NCBI GenBank assembly: GCA_964386535.1
Contig: CAYLRY010000008.1
Span: 6,579 to 70,578 of the forward strand
Origin: an uncultured Dehalococcoidales bacterium
GTDB lineage: Bacteria > Chloroflexota > Dehalococcoidia > Dehalococcoidales > UBA3254
Direction: 5' to 3'
Length of the DNA stretch: 64,000 nt
Shown: positions 9,465-42,138 of the stretch, piece after piece
Layout: the number at the start of each line of letters is the position of its first letter
Position numbering within the stretch: the first letter of the stretch is position 1
The notes under the pieces: generated by a model
Told to the model about the DNA's origin: nothing
What the model saw: the letters and a program-made list of their open reading frames with translations, nothing else
The model's database searches: none
Translations under genes and position numbers: made by a program

Positions 9465-9495
9465 TCAGTAATTAATTAGCAACAGGTGGAATATA

Positions 9496-13029: not shown

Positions 13030-13040
13030 AGGAGGTTAGT

Positions 13041-13379: not shown

Positions 13380-13396
13380 GAGGTTAGAAATACACC

Positions 13397-14344: not shown

Positions 14345-14534
14345 TCTTTGATACGTTATGGACTCTGTTTTGAATATAAACGTTATTTTATCCGGGTAAA
14401 TCAAAGGTTAATAATAGTCAAAATATCAAAATTCAATTCATTTCAGAAACTTCCAGGCTTTCTAAATTATATCTATAACCAAATATAACTTTATATATTT
14501 GAAATATAATAACTATTTAATTAAGGAAAATAAT

Positions 14535-15470
14535 ATGGAGAAACTAATCATTACGGCTGCGCTGACCGGCAATATTACCCTGCCAACCCAGACCCCATAT
14601 CTGCCGCTGACTCCGGAAGAAATTGCGGAGGAAGCTGTACGCTGCGCTGAAGCTGGCGCAGCCTCAATCCATGTTCATGCCAGGAACCCGGACACCGGAC
14701 GGCCTTCAACTGATCCGGTTATTTTTAAAAAAACAGCTACTTTGATTAAAGCCAGGTCAAATGTAATTATTTGTCCCACCACTGGAGGTACGGCCGAAAT
14801 GACCGCGGCTGACCGTATCAGGGTGGTCCCCGCTCTCAAGCCTGAACTGGCCACCTGTAACATGGGCTCAATTAATTTCTCTATACACCCCATCGTGGAC
14901 CGCTACAAGGACAGCGATTATAAATATAGCTGGGAGAAAGAGTTCGCCGCCAGCACCAGGGACTTTATTTTTCGCAATACCTTTGGCGATATTGAGACCT
15001 TCTATAAGACCATGGAGGAAAATGGGACCAAGCCAGAGCATGAGTGTTATGATGTTGGACATCTGTATAACCTGGCTTTTTTCATACGCAGAGGCCTTAT
15101 CAGACCTCCGGTATGGATACAGTTTGTTACCGGGATTTTGGGCGGCATCGGTTCAGATTTTGAAAGTCTAATGTTTATGAAGCAGACTGCCGATAGGCTG
15201 CTGGGTGTGAACAATTACAAGTTTTCAGTGATAGGCGCCGGATTTCCTGCTGAATTTTATGCTGATACCCTATCAATTATGATGGGTGGACATGTGCGAG
15301 TTGGTCTGGAGGATAATATTTTTATTCGAAAAGGCGTGCTGGCCACGAGTAATGCCGAACTAGTGCAGAAAGTGGTTCGCATAGCGCGTGAATTGGGCCG
15401 CGAAATTGCCAGCCCGGATGAGGCCAGATGTATATTGGGTTTAAAAGGCAAAGATAAAGTTAATTTTTAA
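14535..15470 (+). CDS. Beta-keto acid cleavage enzyme (BKACE/DUF849, 3-keto-5-aminohexanoate cleavage family)
   Basis: MEKLIITAALTGNITLPTQTPYLPLTPEEIAEEAVRCAEAGAASIHVHARNPDTGRPS is the characteristic BKACE N-terminus. ATG 14535 is preferred to the track start at 14499. Confidence 0.85.
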   Translation: MEKLIITAALTGNITLPTQTPYLPLTPEEIAEEAVRCAEAGAASIHVHARNPDTGRPSTDPVIFKKTATLIKARSNVIICPTTGGTAEMTAADRIRVVPALKPELATCNMGSINFSIHPIVDRYKDSDYKYSWEKEFAASTRDFIFRNTFGDIETFYKTMEENGTKPEHECYDVGHLYNLAFFIRRGLIRPPVWIQFVTGILGGIGSDFESLMFMKQTADRLLGVNNYKFSVIGAGFPAEFYADTLSIMMGGHVRVGLEDNIFIRKGVLATSNAELVQKVVRIARELGREIASPDEARCILGLKGKDKVNF

Positions 15471-21873: not shown

Positions 21874-22395
21874 ATGGCAGAGTCGAAATATGAAAAATAC
21901 ATAACCCGGAAAGCGGCGGTTTTGACACGGATTGATGATCAGGGGGTTGTCAGATTTGAGGTTCCTCCAACACCTGGCATCCCTCTAAAAAATAAGGACA
22001 ACACCGGACCCCGAATGATCTTCTCCAACGATGTAGTTAAAGAAGCTACCACTAAAATAGAATACGGATTTATTTTAAAAGATACCGTATTGCTTAATAA
22101 TAGTCAGAATTATGGTGCGCATAGGCATGATTATCCCGAGATTTTCCTTTTCCTGGGTAGCGATCCAAATAATACCAATTATTTGGGTGCTGAGGGAGAA
22201 TTCTGGCTGGGTGAAGGAGATGAACTGGAAAAAGTCAGGCTGGATACTTCCTGTAGCGTTTACATACCACCTAATCTAGCTCATTTTCCTTTGTTTTTCA
22301 GAAACGTTAAAACTATGGTTATAATGGGAGTTGTGATTCCCAGAGTGGGTGATCTGATACCAGTGCCCATACCCAGACCCAGAGTAAACCCATAG
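21874..22395 (+). CDS. Cupin-like protein of unknown function (paralog of 58742-59188)
   Basis: 173 aa with an AAGGAGG SD. It shares HxHDxxxIxxFxGxxPxN...AExE...GEE...VYIPxxxxHxPL with the 58742 product. Confidence 0.6.
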   Translation: MAESKYEKYITRKAAVLTRIDDQGVVRFEVPPTPGIPLKNKDNTGPRMIFSNDVVKEATTKIEYGFILKDTVLLNNSQNYGAHRHDYPEIFLFLGSDPNNTNYLGAEGEFWLGEGDELEKVRLDTSCSVYIPPNLAHFPLFFRNVKTMVIMGVVIPRVGDLIPVPIPRPRVNP

Positions 22396-25517: not shown

Positions 25518-26822
25518 GTGAAGCTAAAATCTGAGCGTAAAAACAGTGTTCTCATAATAACCCCAGTAGGCAGGCTGGATGCTTTCGAGGCGATTGGACT
25601 GGGTAAAGATCTGGATAATCTCGTTATGGAAGATGATATATATCTAGTTCTGGACATGGCTAACGTACCTTATTTAAGCAGCGGCGGCATCAGAGTTCTT
25701 TTAGCTGTAAATAAAAAATTGTCCAGAAAGAAAGGACTGGTTTTTCTCTGCAGCCTGTGCGAGTATCCTGTCCAGGTGTTGAAAATGGCTGGTCTGGATA
25801 ACGTTTTTAATACTTGTGATTCTGTTGAGGCTGCCCTTTTTCAAATTTCTAACCTGAAAAGTATACAACGCCATCAAAAGGACCTGCAAAGTCTTCCCTG
25901 TTATAAAATCAAAGATATAAGTTTTCAGGTTTTTCATGCTAACGATAACAATGCAACTTTGAAAATTGTCGGCAGCCTGACGAAAGTGATGCATGCCACA
26001 CTTGAACCTGAAGACATCCGGCGGCGGCGTTTTTCTGAAACAGAATACTCCATCGGTCTGGGTGCTCTGGGAGGCGGCCTGGACGATTGTTTTCCTCTGC
26101 TGGGGGAAATGATGACCATAGGAGGAACAATGGTCTGGCTGCCAACTGATGGTAATGATACACCTGATTTTCTTATTCCCCAAAAAGATACGGGTGAGGT
26201 CATGATCCACACCGGCCTTAATATGGCCCTTGAAGGCCAGTTTAATGATATAATCCTGGTAGGCGCTGTTGAAGCCGGTTTGCCTATTACCCTTATTGAT
26301 TTTTACGAAGCTATCTTCCAAATTGCACGGGTACGGCAGATACCACACAGCAGCCTGGCCAGCGTAGCAATGGTATCCAATCTGGATGCACTGTTCAGCT
26401 CAGGGGTCAAGATATCACCCATTAATAAATTTACACCCACTAATCACGGTATGATCACTGATCCGGAAAATATAGGTCAGTGGATGGATGTTAACACTGA
26501 GCCCAAACATTGTGAACAGACTATGGTAAGTTTCGGGCTGGGTCTGGACTTAACTTTGGACCTTTCAGGTCTTTCAAAAGCCAGCCTGGATAATGTATTT
26601 TACCTGCATCCGGCCAATGTGGGCAGCAAAAAAATGCTTCTACATAATCATGGCGTGGTTTTTCATAACGTGCGGTGGCAGTATGTTCTGAATCTGGATG
26701 CTGAAATCAGGAGGATTGTCCGTGAGGGTGAGTTTGTGGATATGCGTCACCTTCTGGATACCACCCGGTTCACCCGGGCCATTGCCGGTGTTTCATATAT
26801 TTCAAACATAAGGTCCGAATAA
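25518..26822 (+). CDS. STAS (anti-sigma-factor-antagonist-like) domain fused to a ~320-aa unassigned domain
   Basis: 434 aa with a GTG start 8 nt after GGAG. The N-terminal ~110 aa fit the STAS/SpoIIAA pattern (VLIITPVGRLDAFEAIGLGKDLDNL...VLDMANVPYLSSGGIRVLL...LCSLCEYPVQVLKMAGLDNVF). The remainder is unrecognised. Confidence 0.75.
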   Translation: MKLKSERKNSVLIITPVGRLDAFEAIGLGKDLDNLVMEDDIYLVLDMANVPYLSSGGIRVLLAVNKKLSRKKGLVFLCSLCEYPVQVLKMAGLDNVFNTCDSVEAALFQISNLKSIQRHQKDLQSLPCYKIKDISFQVFHANDNNATLKIVGSLTKVMHATLEPEDIRRRRFSETEYSIGLGALGGGLDDCFPLLGEMMTIGGTMVWLPTDGNDTPDFLIPQKDTGEVMIHTGLNMALEGQFNDIILVGAVEAGLPITLIDFYEAIFQIARVRQIPHSSLASVAMVSNLDALFSSGVKISPINKFTPTNHGMITDPENIGQWMDVNTEPKHCEQTMVSFGLGLDLTLDLSGLSKASLDNVFYLHPANVGSKKMLLHNHGVVFHNVRWQYVLNLDAEIRRIVREGEFVDMRHLLDTTRFTRAIAGVSYISNIRSE

Positions 26823-26963: not shown

Positions 26964-26993
26964 TTGACACGGATCAATCACCTGTGATATACA
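26964..26993 (+). promoter_or_regulatory. Putative sigma-70-type promoter (extended -10) upstream of the Bcr/Hgd-like cluster
   Basis: TTGACA (26964-26969), an 18-nt spacer, then TGaTATACA (26985-26993). Confidence 0.3.
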
Positions 26994-27160
26994 TATACTA
27001 AAATTATATCGATGCTTCTACCTATAATATTCCCCCGTTTTTACCACCTTGCCGGCGTACAAATAAGTTCCTTTTCAGGTTCCGGAAACCTGTGGACATG
27101 GATGGTAGATACCGTATTCATTTAATAACTCGATGTGCAAGTGGAGGATCAGTCAGGGAA

Positions 27161-28291
27161 ATGGAAAAATTTCATGAAATACTAAAAAATCACCACCAGT
27201 ATGCCAGAGAATGGAAAAAGAAAACCGGAAGAAAAGTGCTGGGCTACTACGAACCCTATATGCCTGAGGAGGTAGCTTATGCTGCCGGTGTCCTGCCTGT
27301 CCGGCTTTTAAGTGAACATGAGCCTGATGATATTACCGACCATTTTATGTATGGTCAGTGCGCTTGTAGCCGTGATCTTTTAAACCAGTTTTCCAAAGGT
27401 AGGTTTGACTATATAGATGGCCATGTTTATGCTGAAGCCTGCCAGTGGATGCGTGGAGCCTTCCAGACGTGTGGTGCGTATATGCCGGAAGATACTTATC
27501 ATCATTATGTCTATACGCCTGATTATACCGACGGTCCCCGGTCTAAAAGCCTGATGCGTTCTGAAGTAGAATCATTCAAAAAATCCCTGGAGAAATGGAC
27601 CGGCCAAAAAATTACCAATCGTTTACTGGACCACTCAATCAACGTTTATAATACTAACCGCCGGCTGCTGCACCAGATCTATGAAATGCGCCGCCTGGAC
27701 AATCCTGTGGTTACCGGGACAGAAGCCATGGAAATGGTGCTGACCTCCCAGATCATGGACAAAGATGAACATAACAAACTGCTGCGTGAAGCTATCAAAG
27801 AGCTAAGACAGCGTAAACAGGTTAATAATAAGGGCATTCGCGTCATGTTGATCGGTAGCCCAACATCAGATGTAGAACTGGAAAAGCTGATAGAATCGCT
27901 GGGGGCAGTTGTAGTGATAGATGAATTATGCACCGGTGCAGGTTATTTCTGGAACGAAGTGGTACCTCTGGAAGACCGTTTGATGGCTATTTCACTCCGC
28001 TATCTAGGGAAACCACATTGCGCCTTAAAAGATAACAACTGGAGAAGGCGCCCGGCATTTATCCATCAACTGTACGAAGACTATAATGCTAAAGGTGTGA
28101 TTATCTCCAAGCAGATTTATTGCCATCCGCACGGGACGGATAATCCTGAACTCTGGAAGCAGTTTAGAGAGCACTATATGCCGTTTCACTATTTGGAAAG
28201 AGACACCACCAGCCCAGGGCGTGAAACGAAAGTACGCCTGGAAGCTTTCCTGAACATACTACAGGCTGACCCTGTCTTACAGGGCACTTAA
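27161..28291 (+). CDS. BcrC/BzdN/HgdB-family subunit (2-hydroxyacyl-CoA dehydratase / benzoyl-CoA reductase family, PF06050 type)
   Basis: ATG 27161 is preferred to the track start at 27092. MEKFHEILKNHHQYAREWKKKTGRKVLGYYEPYMPEEVAYAAGVLPVRLL is the typical N-terminus of this family. Conserved Cys residues are present (QCACS, EACQW, ELCTG). Confidence 0.8.
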   Translation: MEKFHEILKNHHQYAREWKKKTGRKVLGYYEPYMPEEVAYAAGVLPVRLLSEHEPDDITDHFMYGQCACSRDLLNQFSKGRFDYIDGHVYAEACQWMRGAFQTCGAYMPEDTYHHYVYTPDYTDGPRSKSLMRSEVESFKKSLEKWTGQKITNRLLDHSINVYNTNRRLLHQIYEMRRLDNPVVTGTEAMEMVLTSQIMDKDEHNKLLREAIKELRQRKQVNNKGIRVMLIGSPTSDVELEKLIESLGAVVVIDELCTGAGYFWNEVVPLEDRLMAISLRYLGKPHCALKDNNWRRRPAFIHQLYEDYNAKGVIISKQIYCHPHGTDNPELWKQFREHYMPFHYLERDTTSPGRETKVRLEAFLNILQADPVLQGT

Positions 28292-28394
28292 CCCCTGTTG
28301 ACTCAATCGGCTGAAATGCGAGTTAAAAAACGGAGAGTCATAGACTGTTGTTATTAGAGAAAAGACCGGGAAATTAATCGGGAGATGATACTAT

Positions 28395-29711
28395 ATGACA
28401 AAGGGACAAAGATGGGAAACCAGGCCGCTGGAAAGCTGGGCAAAAGCCAAAGATATGCGGGCCAGATTCGAAAAAGCAGTACGCACGGCCGGGCAGGAAA
28501 AAGTTCTGCTGGCCCAGGGTGGCACTACTTCTATCTGGGCTTTTGCCTTTCCCGCAATCCGCCTGGTGGAAGATAATCCGCTGGGCGCTATGATGGCGTT
28601 TCAGAGTGATAAATTTTCGCGGGAATGCCGTCTGGCCTGTGAGATCAGAGGATGGGGTAGGGAGATCTGCGGTTATCAGTTAAACTGCTGGGGCGCCCAG
28701 TACCTGGACCGTCAAATAGACGGTAGCAAGTTCCCGCTGAGGGATATGGTAATTCCCATGCCGCATCCGTGTGATTCTCATACCAAGAGAGGCCAGCTTC
28801 CCATGGATTACTCAAATATCCCCCGCTGGCAGAGCGATACACCGGTACACACAGATGAACCGGACCCTGTTAGAGAGCAGGAAATGATCGAGAACAAGGT
28901 GGGCTGTATTCTGGATGAAATCCAGGATGTGGAAAGGATCACCGGACAGAAATTTGACGATGAAAAATTTAAAGAAGCCCTTATCAACCAGTGGAAATAC
29001 CGGGAATATGCCGGAGAAGTCTGCTGCATGATTCAGCATGTGCCGGCTCCGCTGGGACAAAAGGAACTGTACTCTTTTTATACCCTGGGCAGCCTGACCA
29101 AGACCGATCCGGCTGAAACGGTGGAACTCTGGAAAATGTTGAGAGACGAGGTCAAATGGCGAACCGAAAATAATATTGCTGCGGTGGGCACAGAAAGGTA
29201 CAGATGGATCGAGCATCATCCACCTCCATGGCATTTTTTGAAATATTACCGCTATATGGAGCAATACGGCGCTGTTTGCATTGGATCACTGTACAGTCAT
29301 ATGATGGGCATTCCTTATGAAATCAACGAAAAAGGTGAATATGTATCCGCCAAAACACCCCTTCAATTAGGAGTACCTTTAGAGACCCGTGAACAATGCG
29401 TACGGGCACTGGTGGGTACCATTATGGGCGGTACCGGTCAGCAGTGGGATGATCTACTGGGCTGGCATCAAATCCGGAATATGGCTAAATATTTCAAGGT
29501 AGATGGAGCTGTCTTGGCACTATGGCGTAGCGGTATAGGCTGCACTTATTTAAGGAAAAAATGCGGTCTGGTTTTAAGTGAAATGGGCATACGTGTGATG
29601 CATTATGAAGGTTCGCAGCCAGGCGATCGTACGGATATGGATGAAAACCGCATGCTGGATCAATTAGATGTCTGGATGGAAACACAGGGATTGCGGAAGC
29701 TGGAGGAGTAA
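28395..29711 (+). CDS. BcrB/BzdO/HgdA-family subunit
   Basis: 438 aa. The N-terminus WETRPLESWAKAKDMRARFEKA, multiple Cys residues and the size match the beta subunit of class I benzoyl-CoA reductases and dehydratase alpha subunits. Confidence 0.8.
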   Translation: MTKGQRWETRPLESWAKAKDMRARFEKAVRTAGQEKVLLAQGGTTSIWAFAFPAIRLVEDNPLGAMMAFQSDKFSRECRLACEIRGWGREICGYQLNCWGAQYLDRQIDGSKFPLRDMVIPMPHPCDSHTKRGQLPMDYSNIPRWQSDTPVHTDEPDPVREQEMIENKVGCILDEIQDVERITGQKFDDEKFKEALINQWKYREYAGEVCCMIQHVPAPLGQKELYSFYTLGSLTKTDPAETVELWKMLRDEVKWRTENNIAAVGTERYRWIEHHPPPWHFLKYYRYMEQYGAVCIGSLYSHMMGIPYEINEKGEYVSAKTPLQLGVPLETREQCVRALVGTIMGGTGQQWDDLLGWHQIRNMAKYFKVDGAVLALWRSGIGCTYLRKKCGLVLSEMGIRVMHYEGSQPGDRTDMDENRMLDQLDVWMETQGLRKLEE

Positions 29712-29722
29712 AGGAGATTGAA

Positions 29723-30496
29723 ATGATAACCGCAGGCATAGATTTAGGGATAGAGAGCATCAAGGTGGTAATCCTGAAAGACGGACTTGTGATATCCCGC
29801 AGTATAGCTTCATCAGGCGGCGCGGATAGGAGGGAGAATGCAGAAAAAGCCTGGCAGGAGGCTCTTAAACCGGCCGGGCTTAGAGCAGAGGACGTCAGCA
29901 AAGTGGTGGCGACAGGTCAGGGCAAGTACGATGCTCGCTTTGCGGTTGAACAGGTGGTGGAGCCGGTGGCAGCAGCCAGAGCGGCCCGTTTTCTCTATCC
30001 TTCAGCCAGAGCTGTGGTAGATGCCGGTGCAGACCAGGTACGCGTAGTAATATTGGGGGCTTCCGGTAATATTACGGAAACGGTGCTGAACCAGAAATGC
30101 GCTGCTGGCATCGGCATTTTTTTACGCTCTATAGCCCGGAGGTTAGGCTTGTCCCTGGAAGATATGAGCAGGTTGGCAGGCAAAACTAAAAGCAGGGTTG
30201 TGGTCAATGATAGCTGCGCGGTTTTTGCCGAACTGGATGCTATTGCACTGGTACAGGATGAGATCCCTTTGCAAGACATAGCCCAGGCTATTCATGAGGC
30301 CATGGCAGTTAGAATCAACTCAGTCCTTAACGATAAAATCGTTCCGGATAAAAATAATACCGTCCTGGTCGGAGGTCTGGCCAGAAATAAGGGTATTGTT
30401 AAAGCATTGAAGAAATGTTCGAAGAACAATTTTTTGATTCCTGCTGATCCTGAATACGCTTGTGCGCTGGGAGCAGCGCTTATTGCCGCAGGATAG
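29723..30496 (+). CDS. BadF/BadG/BcrA/BcrD-type ATPase (activase/electron-activating subunit), copy 1
   Basis: 257 aa. The ASKHA N-terminus is ITAGIDLGIESIKVVIL. Cys126 (NQKCAAGIG) and Cys165 (NDSCAVFAE) are present. Confidence 0.85.
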   Translation: MITAGIDLGIESIKVVILKDGLVISRSIASSGGADRRENAEKAWQEALKPAGLRAEDVSKVVATGQGKYDARFAVEQVVEPVAAARAARFLYPSARAVVDAGADQVRVVILGASGNITETVLNQKCAAGIGIFLRSIARRLGLSLEDMSRLAGKTKSRVVVNDSCAVFAELDAIALVQDEIPLQDIAQAIHEAMAVRINSVLNDKIVPDKNNTVLVGGLARNKGIVKALKKCSKNNFLIPADPEYACALGAALIAAG

Positions 30497-30733
30497 AGAT
30501 GATACCAATATGTGATTTTAAGATAGGAGAGTAAAAAGACCGGACTGCTGGTTTGAATTAATGGCTGAACCTGATACCGGTGTCAGGCCAAAGATAAAAA
30601 ATTTATCCAGGCAAATGAGGTAAGTACGATAAATATGAGCAGCATTATTATCATTTATAGAAAATGATATTGAAAATTAGCTATTATTAGTAGTATTTAA
30701 TTAATATACCGGTTTCTGACAGGAGGTCTTACA

Positions 30734-31591
30734 ATGGCTCAAGAATACTGGAAATGGCCGGAGTCCAGGTGGGCATCCGGTGATATTGATTGGGAAAAGG
30801 CAAAAGTAATTACAGCCGGAGTGGACGCCGGTGCAGTCAGCTCCCAGGTTGTCATAATGTGTGACGGTGAAGTTTTTGCTTATTCTAACCTGCGTACCGG
30901 TCCAAGAAGCCGAGAAAATGCCAGGCGGGCCATGGACAGTGCTCTGGAAGGAACAGGGATGAAGCTTAATAATATTGACACTATCGTAGCTACCGGTTAT
31001 GGTAGTACAGGTGTATCCTTCGCTATGAAAGAGATTAACGAGACCATCTGTCATGCCCGGGGCGCCCGTTTCATGTTTGGTCCCCAGGTGAAGACTGTGT
31101 TTGATATGGGAGGACAGACCGCCAAGGCTATTAAACTCTACGGCTGGGACAGGATTGCTGATGTGGCTTTTAATGATAAATGCGCTGTGAGTATGGGATG
31201 GGGAATTGAAGTTCTGTCTGACCTTATGCATGTACCTGTGACAGAGATGGGGGAAAGGTCACTGGCTGTTAAGCAGGATCCAGAACCGGTGAGCACCACC
31301 TGCTATGTCTTCGCCAATACCGAAGCCGTCGGTATGCTCCGTTCAGGCCTTTCAGAGAATGAAGTGCTTGCTTCATACCTTTTTGCAATAGCCTGGCGTT
31401 TACAAGGTCTGCTGGGACGCATTAATCCGGAGAAGGAGTATGCTTTCACCGGCGGTATGGCCAAAAATCCAGGCATTGTGAAAAGGCTGGAAAGAGAAAT
31501 GGGCATTACCGCCCTGAGTTCCAAGTATGATCCACAGTTGGCCGGGGCGATTGGAGCTGCATTATTGGCTTCGGAAGTTAAACAATATTAG
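30734..31591 (+). CDS. BadF/BadG/BcrA/BcrD-type ATPase, copy 2 (distinct paralog)
   Basis: 285 aa. ITAGVDAGAVSSQVVIM; Cys150 (NDKCAVSMG) and Cys190 (STTCYVFAN). AGGAGG SD. Confidence 0.85.
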   Translation: MAQEYWKWPESRWASGDIDWEKAKVITAGVDAGAVSSQVVIMCDGEVFAYSNLRTGPRSRENARRAMDSALEGTGMKLNNIDTIVATGYGSTGVSFAMKEINETICHARGARFMFGPQVKTVFDMGGQTAKAIKLYGWDRIADVAFNDKCAVSMGWGIEVLSDLMHVPVTEMGERSLAVKQDPEPVSTTCYVFANTEAVGMLRSGLSENEVLASYLFAIAWRLQGLLGRINPEKEYAFTGGMAKNPGIVKRLEREMGITALSSKYDPQLAGAIGAALLASEVKQY

Positions 31592-31616
31592 AAAATTAAA
31601 ATTAAGGATCTGCGAA

Positions 31617-32882
31617 ATGATACGCTCCCCTGGTCAAAAGACTGTTACAGAGGGTATGCTGAGTCCGTACAGAGTCCTGGATCTGGCAGATGAAAAAGGG
31701 GTATTTTGCGGTAAAATCCTGAGTGATCTCGGCGCCGACGTGATTAAAATTGAAAGGCCCGGCGGGGATGCCATGCGCCGCCTGGGCCCTTTTTTTCATG
31801 ATAGTCCTCATCCTGAAAAGAGCCTCTTCTGGATGGCCTATAATACCAATAAACGTGGAATTACTCTTAATATTGAAACCTCTGACGGCCGGAAAATCCT
31901 CAAACAATTGGTGAAAACAGCGGATATCATAGTAGAGTCCTTTTCTCCGGGATATCTGGAGAAATTGGGACTGGGATACACGGACCTGGAAAAAATAAAC
32001 CCCTCGGTTATTCTGGTTTCCATCTCCCCTTTCGGGCCAACTGGGCCTTATAAGGACTATAAAGCTCCGGATATCGTGGCCTGGGCCATGGGTGGGGAGA
32101 TGGCTCCCTTCGGCGAAATAGACCGTCCGCCGATCCGGATTGGTTACCATTCACAGGCGTATCTCAACGCAGGCGCTGACGCTGCTATGGGGGCTTTACT
32201 GGCGCTTTTTTCTCGCTCGAATACGGGGGAAGGGCAGCAGGTTGACGTTTCGATCCAGGAATCAGTAGTACACTCTACTGAGCATATTACCTCCCGCTGG
32301 GATCTGCTGAAATTTCTTCAAAACCGGGTAAACGGAGCCGGCAATTATGGCCTTACCCTGACCAGAATCTGGCCCTGTAAGGACGGCTATGTCTCCTGGT
32401 TTTACTGGGAGGGTGTTATGTCTATCCCCACCAATGTTCCCCTGGTTAAATGGATGGAAAGTGAAGGTATGGCAGATGAGTTCATCCTGAAATATGATTG
32501 GAGCAAGTTCGGCCCTGAGACTACTCGGGAAGAACTCGACCATATTGAAGCTATTACAGCCAAATTTTTTCTAGCTCACACTAAAGCCCAGCTTTTTGAA
32601 GGTTCAGTAAAAAGAAATGTCCAGGTCTATCCTGTCTCTACAGCCTCAGACATGCTAAACGATCCTCAGCTCATCTCCAGAAAGTTCTGGGTAGAGGTGG
32701 AGCATCCAGAACTGGGTACATCAATTACCTTTCCCGGAGCTTTTGCCGCCACTATAGAGGCAACTCCCCAAATATCGCGCCGTGCGCCGCTTATTGGTGA
32801 ACACAATCAGGAAATTCTGGAAAAAGAACTGGGAATATCCCATGAACAAATATTGCTCTTAAAACAGGCAGGTGTGATTTAG
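31617..32882 (+). CDS. Family III CoA-transferase (CaiB/BaiF), copy 1
   Basis: ATG 31617 is preferred to the track start at 31527, which overlaps the upstream gene. YRVLDLADEKGVFCGKILSDLGADVIKIERPGGD is the family III signature region. Confidence 0.85.
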   Translation: MIRSPGQKTVTEGMLSPYRVLDLADEKGVFCGKILSDLGADVIKIERPGGDAMRRLGPFFHDSPHPEKSLFWMAYNTNKRGITLNIETSDGRKILKQLVKTADIIVESFSPGYLEKLGLGYTDLEKINPSVILVSISPFGPTGPYKDYKAPDIVAWAMGGEMAPFGEIDRPPIRIGYHSQAYLNAGADAAMGALLALFSRSNTGEGQQVDVSIQESVVHSTEHITSRWDLLKFLQNRVNGAGNYGLTLTRIWPCKDGYVSWFYWEGVMSIPTNVPLVKWMESEGMADEFILKYDWSKFGPETTREELDHIEAITAKFFLAHTKAQLFEGSVKRNVQVYPVSTASDMLNDPQLISRKFWVEVEHPELGTSITFPGAFAATIEATPQISRRAPLIGEHNQEILEKELGISHEQILLLKQAGVI

Positions 32883-32901
32883 CCCGTTAAGGAAGGAAGC
32901 T

Positions 32902-34086
32902 ATGCCTCCAAAATTATTAGAGGGTATAAAGGTAGTGGATTTTACCTGGCATCTCACGGGTCCTTTGACCACCAAGTTTTTATCCGATTGCGGGGCTGAA
33001 GTAATACATGTGGAGAGCCGGAAAAGGCCAGATATTCAGCGAGTTAACGATAGTAAAGGCAGTTTTAACCAGTATCATACCGGAAAGCTGGGCATCACTC
33101 TTAACCTGTCCATGCCTGCCGGACTGGAACTGGCCAAACGTTTGATTGCCCGCGCGGATGTGGTGGTGGAAAATTTCTCCGGCGGGGCGATGGAAAGAAT
33201 GGGGCTGGGATACGAAGTGCTTAAAAAAATAAAGCCTGATATTATCATGCTAAGTTCATGTATGCAGGGGCAAACCGGACCCCATGCCAGGCTTCCGGGG
33301 TCAGGGCATAAATTAACAGCCCTGTCAGGATTCAGCACCATTACCGGCTGGCCTGATCGCCTGCCGGGAAATATTTTGGCCTATACCGATTTTATCGGCC
33401 CCCGTTTTAATGTAATCGCCATCCTGGCTGCCCTGGAATACCGGCGGCGTACCAGCAGAGGACAATACCTGGATATGTCACAATACGAAAACGCCATTCA
33501 TTTCATGACGCCTCTGATACTGGATTATGTGGTAAATAAAAGACTAGCCGGACGACAGGGAAACCGGTGCGATTATGCCGCCCCTCATAATGCATATAAA
33601 TGCCAGGGAGATGACCGCTGGTGTGTCATTGCTGTTTTTACAGATGAGGAGTGGCAGAGCTTATGCCAGGTGATCGGTAATCCTTCCTGGACTAAAGATC
33701 CGAAATTTGCTACTCTCCTGGGAAGGAAGCAAAATGAAGATGAACTTGACCGCCTTCTGGGAGAATGGACGATTTCCCGCTCCGCTGAAGAAGTAATGTC
33801 TTTAATGCAGGCCAGAGGCGTAGCCGCAGGTATAGTAGCTACTGGAGAAGACCTGATGGAGCGAGACCTCCAGCTTAAACACCGGCAGACATTCGTTAAG
33901 CTTGAGCACCCTGTAATAGGGGAATATCGCACCCAGACCGGACTGCATTGCACTTTATCCAAAACCAAAATTGATTTGAAACGCGCCCCTTTGCTGGGAG
34001 AGCATAATGAATATGTTTTTAAAGAAATTCTGGGTTTGCCGGATGAAGAATATAATAGCCTGGTAAATGGTGGGATTATCAACTGA
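32902..34086 (+). CDS. Family III CoA-transferase (CaiB/BaiF), copy 2
   Basis: 394 aa. LEGIKVVDFTWHLTGPLTTKFLSDCGAEVIHVES, with APLLGEHNE near the C-terminus. Confidence 0.85.
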   Translation: MPPKLLEGIKVVDFTWHLTGPLTTKFLSDCGAEVIHVESRKRPDIQRVNDSKGSFNQYHTGKLGITLNLSMPAGLELAKRLIARADVVVENFSGGAMERMGLGYEVLKKIKPDIIMLSSCMQGQTGPHARLPGSGHKLTALSGFSTITGWPDRLPGNILAYTDFIGPRFNVIAILAALEYRRRTSRGQYLDMSQYENAIHFMTPLILDYVVNKRLAGRQGNRCDYAAPHNAYKCQGDDRWCVIAVFTDEEWQSLCQVIGNPSWTKDPKFATLLGRKQNEDELDRLLGEWTISRSAEEVMSLMQARGVAAGIVATGEDLMERDLQLKHRQTFVKLEHPVIGEYRTQTGLHCTLSKTKIDLKRAPLLGEHNEYVFKEILGLPDEEYNSLVNGGIIN

Positions 34087-34183
34087 CATTGCTGTAACAT
34101 TATCTTCATTTTTCTTTTCTAGCCTCTATCTTAGATGCTAAATTCGCCCGTACAGCAAAAAAGCAAGGAGGGTATAGATTACC

Positions 34184-35503
34184 ATGACAGAAGCCAGGAA
34201 AATTCCCGTAGAGGATCAAAGACTAATAGACATTGTTCAGAAAAAGCATGGCAAGAGCATCGAGGAGCTTCGCCATGAAAGAGAAAAGAGGCTCTGGGAT
34301 GCCGTGGAGTTGAAAGTGCCTGACAGGGTACCGGTAATATTCGGAGGCACATTCTTTGCCTGCAAGTATGCCGGCATTCCTTACTCGGCTGCCTATTATG
34401 ATACTGCCGCCTGGAAGAACGCCTTTAAGAAAATGATCGTGGATATGGACCCGGATTCATACGGCTGGGAGCCACGAGAGTCGGGTTTAGCGCTCGAAGC
34501 TCTTGAGTCGAACTACACCCGCTGGCCCGGCGGACCTTTACCGCCGGATGTGCCTTTCCAGATCGCAGAGAAGGAATACATGAAGGCAGATGAGTACGAC
34601 CTTTTCCTCACAGATCCTTCTGACTATATGCTGCGGTATTTACTGCCCCGTGTTTATGACGCCTTACAGCCGCTGACCAAATTACCCCCCCTGATGGGCT
34701 TTGGTGCTAACTTGGAGCCGGTTGCCAGATTGCTGGTATCTCCGGAATTCGAACCGGTAATCAAGGCAATGAAAAAAGCCGGTGATGCTGAGGCGGAAAA
34801 GCAGCGGCTGATCAGTACCATGACGGAAGAAATGGCTGATCTCGGGTTCCCCCTGCCGTTGAATCCTACCGGTGGGATTATACCCCCGTTCTCCAGCTTC
34901 AGCAACACTTTCCGCACTTTTAACGGCGTGGTTATGGACATGTTCCGCCGGCCTGATAAACTCAAAGCAGCGCTGCAATTGATGCTCAACATTCGCATTG
35001 CCCGAGCCAAACCAGCCGTAAAATCACTGGGACATCCCACACTGGGAAGCTCAGGAGAGGCGCACCGCGTTTCGGATGAATTCTTCTCTAACAAACAGTT
35101 CGAAGAATTTGTCTGGCCATACTGGAAGCAGGCCATGGATAAGACCTATGAACTGGGATACGATATCATCTTCATGTTTTTTGAAGGAAAGCGTGATAAG
35201 CAGCTTCATTATTTTACCCAGTACCCGAAGAGAAGTATGCTGATACGTTTTGCAGAAACCGATATTTTCCGGGCCAAGGAGATCCTGGGAGAAAAAGCCT
35301 GTATCATGGGCAATGTCCCTATTACCATGCTCCAACTCGCGTCACCTTCTGTGGTGGAAGAATACTGTAAGAAGCTGATTACGCAGGTCGGGAAGAACGG
35401 CGGCTTTATCCTTAGGTGCTCTACTGACTTCACACAGGAAGCCAAACCAGAGAATGTGAAAGCAATGATAGATTCGGTAGAAAAATACGGCCGGTACTAT
35501 TGA
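34184..35503 (+). CDS. Uroporphyrinogen-decarboxylase (URO-D) family protein, long form
   Basis: 439 aa. EKRLWDAVELKVPDRVPVIF and the overall pattern resemble URO-D/MtaA-family proteins of anaerobes. It is ~90 aa longer than HemE. Confidence 0.6.
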   Translation: MTEARKIPVEDQRLIDIVQKKHGKSIEELRHEREKRLWDAVELKVPDRVPVIFGGTFFACKYAGIPYSAAYYDTAAWKNAFKKMIVDMDPDSYGWEPRESGLALEALESNYTRWPGGPLPPDVPFQIAEKEYMKADEYDLFLTDPSDYMLRYLLPRVYDALQPLTKLPPLMGFGANLEPVARLLVSPEFEPVIKAMKKAGDAEAEKQRLISTMTEEMADLGFPLPLNPTGGIIPPFSSFSNTFRTFNGVVMDMFRRPDKLKAALQLMLNIRIARAKPAVKSLGHPTLGSSGEAHRVSDEFFSNKQFEEFVWPYWKQAMDKTYELGYDIIFMFFEGKRDKQLHYFTQYPKRSMLIRFAETDIFRAKEILGEKACIMGNVPITMLQLASPSVVEEYCKKLITQVGKNGGFILRCSTDFTQEAKPENVKAMIDSVEKYGRYY

Positions 35504-35637: not shown

Positions 35638-35673
35638 AGCTTCTACTGGTTACTAACTAGTAGGAGCTTTTTT
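35638..35673 (+). terminator. Putative rho-independent terminator after the cluster
   Basis: An imperfect hairpin: AGCTTCTACTGG pairs with CTAGTAGGAGCT, followed by TTTTTT. Confidence 0.45.
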
Positions 35674-35891
35674 ATGTCTACAACTCTAAAAATATGGGTG
35701 AAAGGGTATATTCAGCAAATATTGAAACAGTGAAATAAAGTGTAAATAGAATTTTGAGCAGGTAAAACATATTAAGGTTAACTCTCGTCTTATGGAAGAT
35801 GTAATGAATAATAGACTTCAGAACAAACATAAGGCATGGTGTGGGTTATGAGTGGACTTGCTAACTTTACTACAATAGTGAACAGCAATGT

Positions 35892-37962: not shown

Positions 37963-39033
37963 TCATATAGTGATATTTTTTTCAAAGGCCCGGATTCTTT
38001 TCATCCTCAAGATAACGTGAACATCCTTACCGGTCTCCAAATTCATATCCTGGTAAATATGATGGGGTATTTCCGAGATCAATTTATTATTACCTATTTT
38101 AAGGTAGATTCTCATGGTATCAGTCCGGGGTACAATGTTAATTATTTTACCCATGAAGCTGTTTACCCCGGGTCCGCGAGGCTTGATTTCAGAAACGTAA
38201 ATATGCCGGGGTAAAATGGCTATTTTATGAATATTCTCGCCTTCATGCGGCACCATTATTTTCAATCCCTGACAGCCAACCTCCATAATGCCCTGCCCTG
38301 TATTTTTACTGTAATCACAATCCAGTATATTGGGAGCTCCTATGAAATCAGACACCCTTTCGTTGCAGGGGGAAAACAGCAGCTTTTCCGGCTCATCTAC
38401 CTGCTCAATCTTACCGTCCATCACAATCGCCAACCTATCAGCCATATTTACGGCTTCCATCAGGTCATGAGTAACATAAATAGTGGTAATGCCCAATCGT
38501 CTGTGAATCTGCTTTAATTCCGTTCTTAAATATTTAGAGGTCTGAGGATCCAGTGCACTGAACGGTTCATCCATGAGTAGTATTTGAGGGGAAGCAGCCA
38601 GAGCCCTGGCCAGTGCCACACGCTGCTTTTCACCGCCGCTTAAAGTGCGTGTATCTCGATCTAACAAATTAGTAATTGCAAACAGGTTAGCCATGGTAAG
38701 CGTCTTTTCCTGGACCTTTGCTTTGTCATACTTGCCCCTCTTCAATCCAAATTGAATATTTTCAGTGACATTAAGAAAAGGAAACAGAACATAGTCTTGT
38801 GGAACATAGCCTATTCTGCGTTCCTCAGGAGATAGGGATGTGATATTTTTCCCGTCAACACTGATTTCGCCTTTTTTAACCCTGTGTAACCCTGCCAGGC
38901 ATTCTATAAATATGGTTTTACCTGCTCCTGAGGGCCCCAGGATTATAAAGTATTCCTGATCTTTGATGGAAAGGTTCAAATTTTTAAGAGAAAACCCACC
39001 TATTTGAATGGAAAGATTTTTTATTTCTATCAT
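37963..39033 (-). CDS. modC: Molybdate/tungstate ABC transporter ATP-binding protein with TOBE-like C-terminus
   Basis: 356 aa. Motifs are GPSGAGKT, LSGGEKQRVALARAL and LLMDEPFSALD, with a ~110-aa C-terminal beta domain. It overlaps the permease gene by 4 nt. Confidence 0.8.
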   Translation of the reverse strand: MIEIKNLSIQIGGFSLKNLNLSIKDQEYFIILGPSGAGKTIFIECLAGLHRVKKGEISVDGKNITSLSPEERRIGYVPQDYVLFPFLNVTENIQFGLKRGKYDKAKVQEKTLTMANLFAITNLLDRDTRTLSGGEKQRVALARALAASPQILLMDEPFSALDPQTSKYLRTELKQIHRRLGITTIYVTHDLMEAVNMADRLAIVMDGKIEQVDEPEKLLFSPCNERVSDFIGAPNILDCDYSKNTGQGIMEVGCQGLKIMVPHEGENIHKIAILPRHIYVSEIKPRGPGVNSFMGKIINIVPRTDTMRIYLKIGNNKLISEIPHHIYQDMNLETGKDVHVILRMKRIRAFEKNITI

Positions 39034-39839
39034 AAACTAAACCTGCGTCCGGTAATTAACCGAACCAGCAGTAATGCCAAGAGTGAAATTGCCACCAGTA
39101 TCAGTATTAAAGCTACAGCCTGTTCGATATTGGCAGAAGCAAGACTTAATGCTATAGAAATAGGTAGAGTTTCTGTTTTCATGGCAGTCGCACCAGCCAG
39201 TGTCACAGTAGCTCCAAATTCGCCGACAGCTCTGGCCCAGGTTAGAATGCTGGCAGCTACCAAGCCGTTTTTGGCCAAAGGTAGCATCACTTTAAAGAAG
39301 GCTTCCGGTTTGCTGCAACCCAGCGTGCGGGCAACCTGCTCATAGCGCGTGTCAATACTATCAAAAGTAGATTTTAAAAGGCGAACGGCTAATGCGCTCA
39401 CAATGGTAAACTGAGCCAGGACAATCCCTGGAACTGAAAAAACAAATTGAAGCACATTGTTATTTATAACCTGACCCAAGGGAGTATTGAAAAACACCAG
39501 CAATGCAGCACCCAGTGCAACTGGAGAAATTACTATTGGCAAATCCAGCAGGCTATCTATCAGGTTTTTCCCGAAGAAGTCATTTTTAGAAATGGCGTAA
39601 GCTACCGGGATAGCGATGGCTACCGCTAAAATCGTGGTGATTGTAGCGGTAGCCAGGCTGAGCTTAATGGCAAACAAGGTATGCGAAGATAATATTGAAG
39701 AGCCGAAGGTATTCCAATCTGTATATGTCAGTAAAGAAACTATAATAACTATAAAAAACAGAGTCAGCAGAGTTAATGCACTTATGGTTGCCGTTCTGAA
39801 AACCCTGTCACCCCGGACACCCTGAAAAATTCTGCTCAT
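39030..39839 (-). CDS. modB: Molybdate/tungstate ABC transporter permease (CysTW/ModB type)
   Basis: 269 aa. EQVARTLGCSKPEAFFKVMLPLAKNGLVAASILTWARAVGEFGATVTLAG resembles the ModB EAA/GEFGAT region. Confidence 0.8.
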   Translation of the reverse strand: MSRIFQGVRGDRVFRTATISALTLLTLFFIVIIVSLLTYTDWNTFGSSILSSHTLFAIKLSLATATITTILAVAIAIPVAYAISKNDFFGKNLIDSLLDLPIVISPVALGAALLVFFNTPLGQVINNNVLQFVFSVPGIVLAQFTIVSALAVRLLKSTFDSIDTRYEQVARTLGCSKPEAFFKVMLPLAKNGLVAASILTWARAVGEFGATVTLAGATAMKTETLPISIALSLASANIEQAVALILILVAISLLALLLVRLITGRRFSL

Positions 39840-39857
39840 GTTATTCTCTGATATTCA

Positions 39858-40766
39858 TTAATTCATTAATACCTTCCAGGAATCGGGAAGCTGGTATTCA
39901 CCCCCGATCTGGGCATTTGGAGCATATTTACGCGCTTCGGCTTCAGTAACATCATAGCCCCATTTTCTGAATATGTCCTGACCATCCGGTGAAACCAGAA
40001 AATCGATAAAGGCTGTGGCTGCTTCTCTCTCTTTGACAAAGGTAGATACTGCCGCAGGAACATAAGCAATGCGGGGGATTTGTTCCGGGTTTAGATATAT
40101 TGTTTCAATATTCTTCGGGTCCCAGGCCTGAAAAACACTCCATCCAATAACCGCATCTACTGACTTAAGCGATATTAAAGTGGCCGTATTATCGCAACTG
40201 GCAGCCTGAGTAACTATATTAGTATAGACATCTGCCAGCAAATGATTTTTGTTTAGAAGCTCAACAGCATATAAGCCCACGCAAACAGTAGTTGGATTGC
40301 CTATACCAACCTTAATACCTGATTTGGTAAGATCTGACAAAGATTGAATGTTCTTAGGATTTCCAGTTTGAACATTGATAGCTGGAATAAGGTAAGCAAT
40401 AATTTTTGTCGAAGCCGGATCGGTTATTTTCTTGCTTTCGGATTTTACCAGATAGTCCGGTGATCCGGGAATATAGAGGTCTCCGTTTTTTGATAATTCC
40501 ATTTGAGATAGGACTGTACCGGATCCGCCGTATGTCAGGAAAACTTTTACTCCAGTTTGTTTTTCAAACGCCGCGGCGGCTTCATCCAGTGCGGGCTTAC
40601 TGGCAGAACCGGCAAAGACTGATATCTCTTTACCTGACAGCGAAGAATTTTTAGAGGATATGGACGTATTGGTTGTAGAAACCGGTTGGTTGGAACAACC
40701 TGCCAGCGACATTATCAGTAATAAACTGCTGAGTAAAAAGACTAACAGAATATTGTTGATTTTCAT
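39858..40766 (-). CDS. modA: Molybdate/tungstate-binding lipoprotein (ModA/WtpA-like)
   Basis: ATG 40766 lies 5 nt after AAGGAG; the track uses the adjacent TTG. Lipobox is SLAGC. ISVFAGSASKPALDEAAAAFEKQTGVKVFLTYGGSGTVLSQ parallels the ModA N-lobe. Confidence 0.75.
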   Translation of the reverse strand: MKINNILLVFLLSSLLLIMSLAGCSNQPVSTTNTSISSKNSSLSGKEISVFAGSASKPALDEAAAAFEKQTGVKVFLTYGGSGTVLSQMELSKNGDLYIPGSPDYLVKSESKKITDPASTKIIAYLIPAINVQTGNPKNIQSLSDLTKSGIKVGIGNPTTVCVGLYAVELLNKNHLLADVYTNIVTQAASCDNTATLISLKSVDAVIGWSVFQAWDPKNIETIYLNPEQIPRIAYVPAAVSTFVKEREAATAFIDFLVSPDGQDIFRKWGYDVTEAEARKYAPNAQIGGEYQLPDSWKVLMN

Positions 40767-40840
40767 CAAATCTCCTTAAAAGTAAATAAGTGTAATTAAA
40801 ACAGTCAATTATTATATTTATTTATGCTTTCATACCTCTT

Positions 40841-40965
40841 CTCCTTTCCAATCCGGGGAAGTAGCGCCGTTTCCTGCACTACCGTTGATCCGCTTTATGC
40901 GGATACCGGCTGGTTACCCTGTCCCGAACTCACCGGGATTTAGATAAATCAGCTCCAGAGAAATG
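40841..40965 (-). promoter_or_regulatory. Moco (molybdenum cofactor) riboswitch-like element, proximal copy
   Basis: The reverse strand reads CUCUGGAGCUG...CCCGgugaguuCGGG...AUCCGCauaaaGCGGAU...UAGUGCaggaaacgGCGCUA...UUGGAAAGGAG. It is located in the modA leader. The stems covary with the distal copy. Confidence 0.6.
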
Positions 40966-41061
40966 GTTTATTCTTTTATCAATTTACCAATCTTCTCAGA
41001 GAGAAAAAAACATTGATAAAGAGTTCATGTAAAATGAACTATGAAGATGAAATAACAAAAT

Positions 41062-41093: not shown

Positions 41094-41119
41094 ATTTTTG
41101 CAAACAGACTTCATTTCAT

Positions 41120-41235
41120 CTCCTTTCCAATTTGGGAAATATCACCGTTTCCAGTGATACCGTCGAGATTCTGCATCTACCGGCTGTTAACCTTGTTCTT
41201 GCTTGAATTTAGGTACAACAGCTCTGGAGAATTTC
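41120..41235 (-). promoter_or_regulatory. Moco riboswitch-like element, distal copy
   Basis: The reverse strand reads CUCCAGAGCUG...AGAUgcagaAUCU...UAUCACuggaaacgGUGAUA...UUGGAAAGGAG. It has the same architecture as the proximal copy, with compensatory stem changes. Confidence 0.55.
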
Positions 41236-41320
41236 ACTAATTGCTATAATATCAAGGTTTAAAAAATCCGTCAATAAATACGTCCCATATTGTCATAAAA
41301 ACCCTGGTGCAGCATTAAGA

Positions 41321-41578: not shown

Positions 41579-41650
41579 CTCCCCGACTAGGGCTCGAACC
41601 TAGAACCTAGCGGTTAACAGCCGCCCGCTCTACCATTGAGCTATCGGGGA
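41576..41650 (-). tRNA. tRNA-Asn (anticodon GTT), CCA encoded
   Basis: The reverse strand is TCCCCGA TA GCTC AATGGTA GAGC G GGCGG CTGTTAA CCGCT AGGTT CTAGG TTCGAGC CCTAG TCGGGGA G CCA. All four stems pair and the anticodon loop is CU-GUU-AA. Confidence 0.9.
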
Positions 41651-41784
41651 ATGCACCGGAGGGAACCGAGGCTAGTAATCGGATTTTTTTCCCACCTTGA
41701 GTATTATCACTTTTTACACTAAAAATGTCAAGGCCTCAGGACAACCTCTGAGGATGTGATAAGAATTTCTCACCAGGCTTAATA

Positions 41785-41888
41785 ACCTTGATTCACCATC
41801 AAATGAAGCTAAACGAGATTCAATATTTTCACCAAATTGGTACAGAAACCTCATGCCTGATTAAGACTTCTTGACGGCGCATTCTGGA
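41785..41888. repeat. Direct repeat copy A (~100 nt)
   Basis: The 74-nt core (41785-41858) is ~88 percent identical (65/74) to 42036-42109. A weaker similarity continues for ~30 nt more. Confidence 0.85.
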
Positions 41889-42035
41889 TAACCTGATCAG
41901 TAAATGTAATCCAGGCTAAAAAATTGTTGGAATTACAGAGCGTCAGGTACGGAAGAGGGTATGCAGCCTGGCATTAAAGCCTTAGAACGTTGTATTATAT
42001 TTTAATACCGGACAAATAATCAAGAGTTGTTCCGA

Positions 42036-42138
42036 ACCTTGATTCACCATCAAACAAAGCTAAACGAGCGTGGATATTTTCACCAAATTGGTGCAGAAAC
42101 CTTGTGCCTATTTGAAGCAATTTGATGGCGGATTTTGG
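42036..42138. repeat. Direct repeat copy B (~100 nt), just upstream of the M20 peptidase gene
   Basis: See copy A. Both contain the small hairpin TTGATtcaccATCAA. Confidence 0.85.

Follow-up and report, generated by a model that had tools for sequence, protein, structure and literature searches.

Class I benzoyl-coenzyme A (CoA) reductases are best known from facultative anaerobes, and the reduction and defunctionalization of aromatic rings in strict, energy-limited anaerobes, such as the Dehalococcoidia of sediments and the Firmicutes of guts, are to our knowledge poorly understood. Succinyl-CoA:o-phthalate CoA-transferase is a relative of BbsEF, the succinyl-CoA:(R)-benzylsuccinate CoA-transferase. 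The known 2-hydroxyacyl-CoA dehydratases employ one homodimeric activator (PMC11971306). In BzdNO, Glu65 of BzdO is the proposed proton donor and His131 is its partner in an acid/base pair, a position at which HadB has Ala (PMC11971306). Here, we analyzed a 64,000-nucleotide stretch of DNA from an uncultured Dehalococcoidales bacterium (contig CAYLRY010000008.1, positions 6,579 to 70,578; hereafter the window), in which seven genes between positions 27161 and 35503 encode a four-subunit enzyme (N, O, P and Q) related to the Bzd-type reductases, two family III CoA-transferase subunits (CT1 and CT2) and a protein of the uroporphyrinogen decarboxylase (URO-D) superfamily.

Judged from its sequences, N-O-P-Q is a distinct, uncharacterized sister clade of the Bzd-type reductases. 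The clade retains the architecture of a reductase, with two different ATPases, a six-cysteine N subunit and the equivalent of His131, while its substrate and proton environment are altered. We give about even chances to the proposal that N-O-P-Q-CT1-CT2 (27161-34086) constitutes one catabolic module, in which CoA transfer is followed by ATP-driven reduction of an aryl-CoA. The seven genes are as follows:

27161..28291, plus strand: subunit N (376 amino acids, aa), BzdN-like electron-transfer subunit, HGD-D 231 bits
28395..29711, plus strand: subunit O (438 aa), BzdO-like, catalytic and substrate-binding, with a [4Fe-4S] site
29723..30496, plus strand: subunit P (257 aa), ATPase of the BcrAD/BadFG (activase) family
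30734..31591, plus strand: subunit Q (285 aa), BzdQ-like ATPase
31617..32882, plus strand: CT1 (421 aa), subunit of a family III CoA-transferase, lacking the canonical catalytic Asp
32902..34086, plus strand: CT2 (394 aa), subunit of a family III CoA-transferase, carrying the catalytic Asp (D163)
34184..35503, plus strand: accessory gene for a 439-aa protein of the URO-D superfamily, CdmB / O-demethylase methyltransferase-I type

An earlier note on this DNA had described seven co-directional genes in this interval, and the listing of open reading frames (ORFs) and Pfam matches bore them out as intact. HGD-D, BcrAD_BadFG and CoA_transf_3 domains were each found twice and URO-D once, all far above their gathering scores. 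The start of the first transferase gene, previously set at 31614 (422 aa), was corrected to the ATG at 31617. The Bzd-like subunit order also held, with the genes arranged N-O-P-Q and BzdN, BzdO and BzdQ as the best matches among hidden Markov models (HMMs) and PDB entries. All four subunits nevertheless scored under the NCBIfam equivalog cut-offs: N reached 283 bits on BzdN (cut-off 454), O reached 193 bits on BzdO (cut-off 449) and Q reached 307 bits on BzdQ (cut-off 380). P scored 135 bits on Pfam BcrAD_BadFG, and 174 and 122 bits on the NCBIfam models CoA_E_activ and BcrD. The dehydratase models gave 62 bits (HadB, cut-off 750) and 131 bits (HadC, cut-off 700). The best PDB match of N was BzdN (8s02_B, E = 1e-80, 37% identity; HadC, E = 6e-31) and that of O was BzdO (8s02_A, E = 2e-51, ~30% identity; HadB, E = 2e-12). 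No characterized operon of high identity was found, with nothing above 37% identity in NCBIfam, the PDB and the literature. The locus has the membership of neither the standard benzoyl-CoA pathway nor a standard 2-hydroxyacyl-CoA dehydratase operon, in agreement with the earlier note.

The [8Fe-9S] cluster of BzdN is ligated by Cys36, 73, 100, 263, 293 and 327, of which the last five align with cysteines in N (C67, C94, C257, C287 and C321). Cys36 is replaced by Glu31, and N has an additional cysteine, Cys69, which aligns with BzdN position 75 and is part of a C-A-C motif. Arg53 and His330 of BzdN are retained. At 12 of 14 loci, N homologues from Dehalococcoidia have Glu36 together with Cys75 (E-C-C), while those at the other two have Cys36 without the extra cysteine (C-C-N). 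This co-variation suggests that a six-cysteine set is preserved by a ligand swap in Dehalococcoidia N. N probably carries a double-cubane-type Fe-S cluster, and a six-cysteine N fits a two-electron-storing cluster like that of BzdN. The N homologues from Firmicutes have lost three of the six double-cubane cysteines.

Mapping of O onto the BzdNO structure showed that Cys95, Cys128, His131, Tyr97 and Tyr298 of BzdO are retained. His131 corresponds to H129, and two predicted ligands of the catalytic [4Fe-4S] cluster, C92 and C126, align with Cys95 and Cys128. Three other positions are changed. Glu65 is replaced by Asn61, which follows Asp60 and is invariant in a 40-sequence alignment of the family. 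Gln274 is replaced by Pro276, invariant in the clade, which leaves the hydrogen-bonding triad of the thioester (Tyr97, Tyr298 and Gln274) incomplete, with both tyrosines present. Finally, the column of BzdO Cys380 holds Gly in O, and an invariant cysteine, Cys383, is found three residues further on. This third cysteine is part of a clade-specific R-x-G-I/V-G-C motif, as opposed to R-G-C-E-G in BzdO.

The two ATPases keep exactly the cysteine pairs that had been noted before, C126/C165 in P and C150/C190 in Q, and those of P are the predicted ligands of the bridging cluster. P and Q are 30% identical to each other, and both types are present in most homologous loci with sufficient flanking sequence. 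That one of them might be a decayed duplicate can be ruled out, since they are old paralogues, both types are conserved and the cluster cysteines are kept.

An exhaustive search with O against 1.84 billion representatives returned 442 relatives. Only six full-length clusters fell at 43-52% identity, followed by a tier at 35% and then by a BzdO-like tier at ~30%. The clade that includes the window O was monophyletic in 100 of 100 neighbor-joining bootstraps and was separate from the clade that holds BzdO. Representatives of the BzdO type retain Glu65, Gln274 and R-G-C-E-G, whereas the window clade lacks all of these. For the two proteins searched, O and the URO-D-superfamily protein, the closest relatives came from metagenome-assembled genomes (MAGs) of Chloroflexota / Dehalococcoidia. 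In the literature that could be searched, the coverage of which is incomplete, we found neither the clade nor a coupling of it to BbsEF-type transferases described.

CT1 and CT2 scored 267 and 330 bits on Pfam CoA_transf_3 and matched the two chains of benzylsuccinate CoA-transferase one to one. The best PDB match of CT1 was 9fn0_A (241 bits, 37.5% identity; chain B, 118 bits), and that of CT2 was 9fn0_B (235 bits, 37.4% identity; chain A, 82 bits). Crosswise identities between the two pairs were ~26%, and CT1 and CT2 are 28% identical to each other. The duplication that gave rise to the two subunits therefore predates their split from Bbs. The column of Asp169 of formyl-CoA transferase (Frc) holds Asp in CT2 (D163, in a YTD motif) and in 9fn0_B, and Ala in CT1 and in 9fn0_A. 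(In the Frc reference sequence, the GDSNSG motif places the Asp at residue 169, as expected.) The chain matches and the Asp pattern uphold the suggestion of a two-subunit, BbsEF-type transferase, while the Had/Fld-like transferase linkage that had also been proposed was given up, because the pair matches the BbsEF subunits instead. Nor is either copy a decayed duplicate: CT1 is conserved, and chain A of Bbs likewise lacks the Asp. CT1 and CT2 are best read as a BbsEF-type heteromer, in which CT2 would be the catalytic subunit and CT1 its partner. In a metagenome scan with CT2, CT1 was followed by CT2 in tandem at 60 of 80 loci (43-75% identity). The usual neighbors of these pairs were genes for an enoyl-CoA hydratase, an SCP-x-type thiolase, a short-chain dehydrogenase/reductase (SDR) and an acyl-CoA dehydrogenase, a bbs-like set for beta-oxidation.

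The association of N-O-P-Q with a BbsEF-type pair is no isolated chimera but a recurrent module in Dehalococcoidia. At seven of the eight loci with enough flanking sequence on Dehalococcoidia contigs, N-O-P-Q (60-68% identity) precedes CT2-type and CT1-type genes that converge on each other and are 40% and ~33% identical, respectively, to those in the window. At two sister Dehalococcoidia loci (L082, 13446-21200, and L083, 13548-19844), the convergent pair is followed by a divergent set of genes for a UGSC-domain protein (~127 aa), a conserved protein of 393-422 aa without a Pfam match and one or two SDRs, which are conserved partners of the N-O-P-Q systems there. The closest relative, on a metagenomic contig and with O at least 90% identical, shares the order N-O-P-Q-CT1-CT2 with the window; the next gene there is of the Acetyltransf_6 type, and a URO-D gene is lacking. 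Another contig (L167; ENA contig_39086, 403 kb) carries at 9601-13686 an O gene (90%) and CT1 and CT2 genes (81-84%) preceded by the conserved upstream stretch described below. N, P and Q are missing from L167, and frameshifts interrupt both O and CT1. The locus has the appearance of a cluster in decay, although the frameshifts may be assembly errors.

In the relatives from Firmicutes (L017-L079), the gene order is Q-N-O-P and the partner is a family I CoA-transferase (17 loci), accompanied by TRAP transporters and SDRs; short URO-D-family genes are usual there too. Many such loci can occur in a single Firmicutes MAG, with 12 in the Clostridiales isolate Nt197P3bin58 and 11 in the Peptococcaceae isolate Gx485_bin131, labels that we take to resemble those of a termite-gut MAG series. 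Since a CoA-transferase is found in both phyla, the functional core would consist of the four-subunit enzyme and a CoA-transferase, the type of which depends on the phylum.

The URO-D-superfamily protein had been considered to be either a decarboxylase or a methyltransferase. A HemE-like decarboxylase was not supported, as the HemE model gave only 25 bits against a cut-off of 303 and the alignment was limited to the C-terminal 80-130 residues. Assignment to the MtaA/CmuA type failed as well (36-42 bits against cut-offs of 235-244), and what stood was homology to corrinoid methyltransferases of the CdmB type. The Pfam URO-D match (75 bits) covers residues 229-435 only, while the alignment with CdmB (PDB 9rui, E = 6e-34) is near end-to-end, with residues 32-438 against 21-429. 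CdmB is the chloromethane:corrinoid methyltransferase I of Acetobacterium dehalogenans, where cdmBCA are clustered, and its clade includes the O-demethylase methyltransferases MtvB, OdmB, VdmB and MtoB (PMC13222342). An AlphaFold2 model of the window protein (pLDDT 88.8) has the URO-D barrel fold. A fold search of the PDB with this model returned only HemE and MtaA-type barrels with TM-scores of ~0.5, and CdmB was not among the matches listed. The fold thus did not discriminate between the types, and the assignment follows the sequence match to CdmB. The protein family is very large and is paralogous in Dehalococcoidia.

The intergenic spacers of the cluster are, in gene order, 103, 11, 237, 25, 19 and 97 bp long. 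Two noncoding features flank the genes:

26964..27018, plus strand: conserved upstream stretch, candidate promoter/operator region, containing TTGACA at 26964-26969
35638..35677, plus strand: intrinsic-terminator-like hairpin with a 14-bp stem and a T run, closing the seven-gene unit

The hairpin (35638-35668, followed by the T run) was the only convincing intrinsic terminator on the plus strand and lies 3' of the URO-D gene. The 97 bp that separate CT2 from the URO-D gene contain no terminator-like site, and the URO-D gene has a ribosome-binding site of its own. The URO-D gene is probably co-transcribed with the module in this strain. The upstream stretch (55 nt, within a 340-bp spacer) is 85% identical to a stretch upstream of the remnant cluster in L167. 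We infer a promoter function for this candidate region. A scan for consensus promoters gave no more sites in the sequence than in shuffled sequences, and the TTGACA at 26964 was not among the sites listed. An Rfam scan of the cluster spacers yielded no riboswitch or known RNA. The spacer between P and Q (30497-30733, 237 bp) is unusually long and AT-rich. It is ~230 bp long in the relative with O at least 90% identical and ~30-125 bp in more distant loci. Promoter-like hexamers were found in it, but neither an Rfam match nor a credible ORF.

From the homologies, the residue patterns and the conserved gene order, we propose the following function for the module. A carboxylic acid would be imported and converted to its CoA thioester by transfer from a presumed CoA donor, at no cost in ATP, by a CT1/CT2 heteromer with CT2 as the catalytic subunit. 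The heterodimeric P-Q would hydrolyze ATP and drive low-potential electrons via a bridging [4Fe-4S] cluster into the cluster of N. From there, the electrons would presumably flow to the three-cysteine [4Fe-4S] cluster of O, where the bound acyl-CoA would be reduced. Most likely, this substrate is an aryl-CoA, made from an acid that is possibly hydroxylated or methoxylated, and the reaction would either dearomatize the ring or reductively remove one of its substituents. An aromatic, plant-derived substrate is suggested by the relationship to Bzd, by the association with methyltransferases and by a phloroglucinol-like gene set 12 kb upstream (see below). Because the proton-donating Glu65 is replaced, the regiochemistry or the protonation would differ from that in BzdNOPQ, possibly with elimination of a substituent rather than simple 1,5-diene formation. 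The URO-D product would most likely serve as a substrate:corrinoid methyltransferase of the O-demethylase type for methoxylated aromatics, with the corrinoid protein encoded elsewhere.

Several observations weigh against this proposal. With Glu65 changed to Asn, Gln274 changed to Pro and the third cluster cysteine of O displaced, a Birch-type ring reduction as in BzdNO is not assured. The CT1-CT2 pairs in metagenomes are mostly found in bbs-like clusters and not beside N-O-P-Q, so that the substrate could be a substituted dicarboxylate and not simple benzoate. The URO-D gene is missing after CT2 in two close relatives, and in the contexts seen, URO-D homologues from Dehalococcoidia never stood beside a corrinoid protein. 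Finally, no ferredoxin and no ring-hydrolysis genes (the dienoyl-CoA hydratase Dch, Had and Oah) were found among the window ORFs of at least 150 aa and the small ORFs in the spacers, as the earlier note had stated; a CoA ligase and a corrinoid protein were likewise not found in this set.

We considered whether N-O-P-Q could simply be an ordinary Bzd-type benzoyl-CoA reductase that converts benzoyl-CoA to the cyclic dienoyl-CoA and has diverged through its Chloroflexota origin. The gene order and the best HMM and PDB matches would fit such an enzyme, and class I reductases of the Bzd type have been reported in marine Chloroflexi single-cell genomes (PMC5736913). However, this is very improbable given the scores under the equivalog cut-offs, the identities of just ~30% to BzdO and 37% to BzdN, and the position in a separate clade (100/100 bootstraps) that has not retained Glu65, Gln274 and R-G-C-E-G. 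Moreover, a benzoate-CoA ligase, a BzdM-type ferredoxin and Dch, Had and Oah were not found in the window, which has a CoA-transferase pair instead. A dehydratase-like or redox-neutral radical enzyme of the HAD branch, with a heterodimeric activator and acting on a 2-hydroxy (di)carboxyl-CoA, would account for the loss of the proton-donating Glu65, and the loss of three double-cubane cysteines in the Firmicutes N subunits is reminiscent of HadC-like subunits. N-O-P-Q shares its superfamily with such enzymes, and its constant neighbor is a CoA-transferase, as in Had and Fld. BbsEF-type transferases typically act on substituted dicarboxylates, with homologous CT pairs in beta-oxidation clusters, and an amino-acid-type ABC importer is encoded nearby. 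Still, we consider this reading unlikely, because the two different ATPases are conserved through most of the family, while the known dehydratases have one homodimeric activator. The HadB and HadC scores fall well under those for BzdO and BzdN as well as under their own cut-offs, His131 is kept where HadB has Ala, and the compensating swap maintains six cysteines in Dehalococcoidia N. It is also conceivable, if rather doubtful, that the ATP-driven radical Fe-S enzymes of this clade make up a functional class that is new, being neither benzoyl-CoA reductases nor 2-hydroxyacyl-CoA dehydratases. Candidate reactions would be the reductive removal of hydroxy or methoxy groups from lignin- or polyphenol-derived aryl-CoA, or ring reduction with another regiochemistry. 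If so, the enzyme would always be fed by a CoA-transferase and often be accompanied by O-demethylase-type corrinoid methyltransferases, and the Firmicutes paralogues (at least 11-12 per MAG), together with the spread in sediment Dehalococcoidia, would represent a major unrecognized anaerobic route for plant aromatics.

The other alternative concerns the extent of the unit. The chances that the URO-D gene is a functionally unrelated neighbor that landed behind the transferases, leaving a real unit of six genes, are only slightly short of even. Homologues with 87, 85, 78 and 67% identity occur in unrelated contexts without N-O-P-Q, transferases or corrinoid proteins, indicating that the adjacency in the window is strain-specific. 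After CT2, the relative with O at least 90% identical has the Acetyltransf_6 gene, and L167 has only a 32%-identical URO-D paralogue, which is encoded on the opposite strand at a distance of 3.5 kb. Genes for a corrinoid protein, a methyltransferase II and an activating enzyme were not found in the 64-kb window. With five homologue contexts (67-87%) and two close relatives of the cluster lacking the linkage, the URO-D gene was dropped as a member of the cluster proper. On the other side stand the terminator-free 97-bp spacer, the gene's own ribosome-binding site and the strong terminator 3' of the gene, along with the recurrence of URO-D-family genes in both phyla: among 69 loci of this reductase family, 14 have such genes, in some cases directly beside O. 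Corrinoid proteins are encoded at three of these 14 loci (L044, L051 and L060). At L119 and L131, genes for a corrinoid protein and URO-D proteins precede the CT1-CT2 pair on the same strand, and at L092 and L118 a RACo-type corrinoid activator adjoins the pair. The URO-D relatives beside corrinoid proteins at L044, L119 and L131 are more distant ones. A loose functional association, with methyl groups being removed from the same class of substrate, is plausible.

A trio of genes for a MoxR-type AAA ATPase, a DUF58 protein and a DUF4129 protein is found at 7188-11010 of the window. On the related contig L005 (5035-8754), the 67%-identical URO-D homologue has a comparable trio (MoxR 65% and DUF58 45% identical) as its immediate neighbor, which hints at a rearrangement of the intervening region.

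Upstream of the cluster are genes for a MalT-type LuxR regulator, a cupin-like protein of 173 aa, a polar-amino-acid-type ATP-binding cassette (ABC) importer and a 434-aa STAS-domain protein. The importer had been placed directly upstream of the cluster, but the STAS-domain gene (25518-26822) and the 340-bp spacer intervene, so that it is merely near. Downstream, a major facilitator superfamily (MFS) transporter gene lies on the opposite strand. The gene for the 173-aa protein (21874-22395, plus strand) sits between those for the regulator and the importer. Cupin-like motifs can be recognized in its product, for which neither Pfam nor NCBIfam gave a match. Homologues are encoded near the N-O-P-Q locus L015 (271-780, 59% identity) and upstream of CT1-CT2 pairs at L101 (41%) and L166 (29%).

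The gene set 12 kb upstream of the cluster (11300-15470, plus strand) consists of four consecutive genes, for an SDR (254 aa), a PF04199 cyclase (268 aa), a 3-hydroxyacyl-CoA-dehydrogenase-type protein (315 aa) and a BKACE protein (323 aa). On the NCBIfam model for 3,5-dioxohexanoate:acetyl-CoA acetone transferase (NF053538, cut-off 430), the BKACE protein reached 411 bits. We take this composition to be that of an anaerobic phloroglucinol pathway, with a reductase, a cyclohydrolase, a dehydrogenase and a triacetate-cleaving enzyme. It would suggest that the host breaks down polyphenols.

Further downstream, two tandem molybdenum cofactor (Moco) riboswitch aptamers (40825-40972 and 41104-41241, minus strand; 57.6 and 56.5 bits, gathering score 36) precede a ModA-like ABC transporter operon (37963-40769, minus strand). 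A tRNA gene (41579-41650, minus strand) is adjoined by a 104-nt direct repeat (41784-41887 and 42035-42138), the copies of which are 81% identical and 251 nt apart. L167 has another copy (9474-9592, 78-83% identical) immediately before its remnant O-CT1-CT2 genes. Such a small repeat may be mobile or regulatory.

The cluster thus delimits an uncharacterized sister clade of Bzd, with a changed proton-delivery residue, a rearranged cluster ligand and a cysteine swap in the electron-storage subunit, in which a constant CoA-transferase partner replaces the ATP-consuming ligase. It is a widespread and testable clade and not a new kind of system, and the six-gene unit is a concrete, clonable target for testing its chemistry. 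In sources, these proteins are annotated as "benzoyl-CoA reductase subunit B/C" or as "2-hydroxyacyl-CoA dehydratase". Caution is warranted with the automatic label "benzoyl-CoA reductase subunit B/C", and hence with claims of benzoate degradation in metagenomes that are based on it.

When compared with the two accessory systems, the window differs chiefly in what surrounds the shared proteins. Like BbsEF (PDB 9FN0), CT1 and CT2 are tandem paralogous family III subunits with the Asp in the chain-B type only. Unlike BbsEF, of which they are not orthologues (37% identity), they are coupled to an ATP-dependent Fe-S enzyme, and no adjacent bbs-type beta-oxidation genes are present in the window. 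The URO-D-superfamily protein resembles CdmB in its near end-to-end alignment, in its length (439 against 429 aa) and in the barrel of its model. It differs in its low identity, in the lack of an adjacent corrinoid protein, methyltransferase II and activating enzyme, and in having stand-alone paralogues in Dehalococcoidia.

The four-subunit enzyme shares features with both branches of its superfamily. With HadBC/HadI/HadA (PDB 3O3M), Fld and Hgd, it has in common the HGD-D superfamily, the linkage to a CoA-transferase and a predicted three-cysteine [4Fe-4S] site. It is distinguished from HadBC, Fld and Hgd by two different ATPases in place of one homodimeric activator and by the six-cysteine N, and from HadB by His131; its matches to Had are much weaker than those to Bzd, and the transferase in the window is a BbsEF-type heteromer, unlike those of the Had, Fld and Hgd systems. 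With BzdNOPQ, it shares the four subunits N-O-P-Q and two different ATPases of the ASKHA type with two cluster cysteines each, and with the BzdNO structure (PDB 8S02, PMC11971306) the five retained residues of O named above and, in N, five aligned cluster cysteines with Arg53 and His330. It departs from BzdNOPQ in its low identity (37% for N, ~30% for O), in Asn61, Pro276 and the shifted third cysteine of O, in Glu31 and Cys69 of N, and in a neighborhood where activation by a CoA-transferase takes the place of a ligase and where ferredoxin and the downstream genes of the benzoyl-CoA pathway are not nearby.

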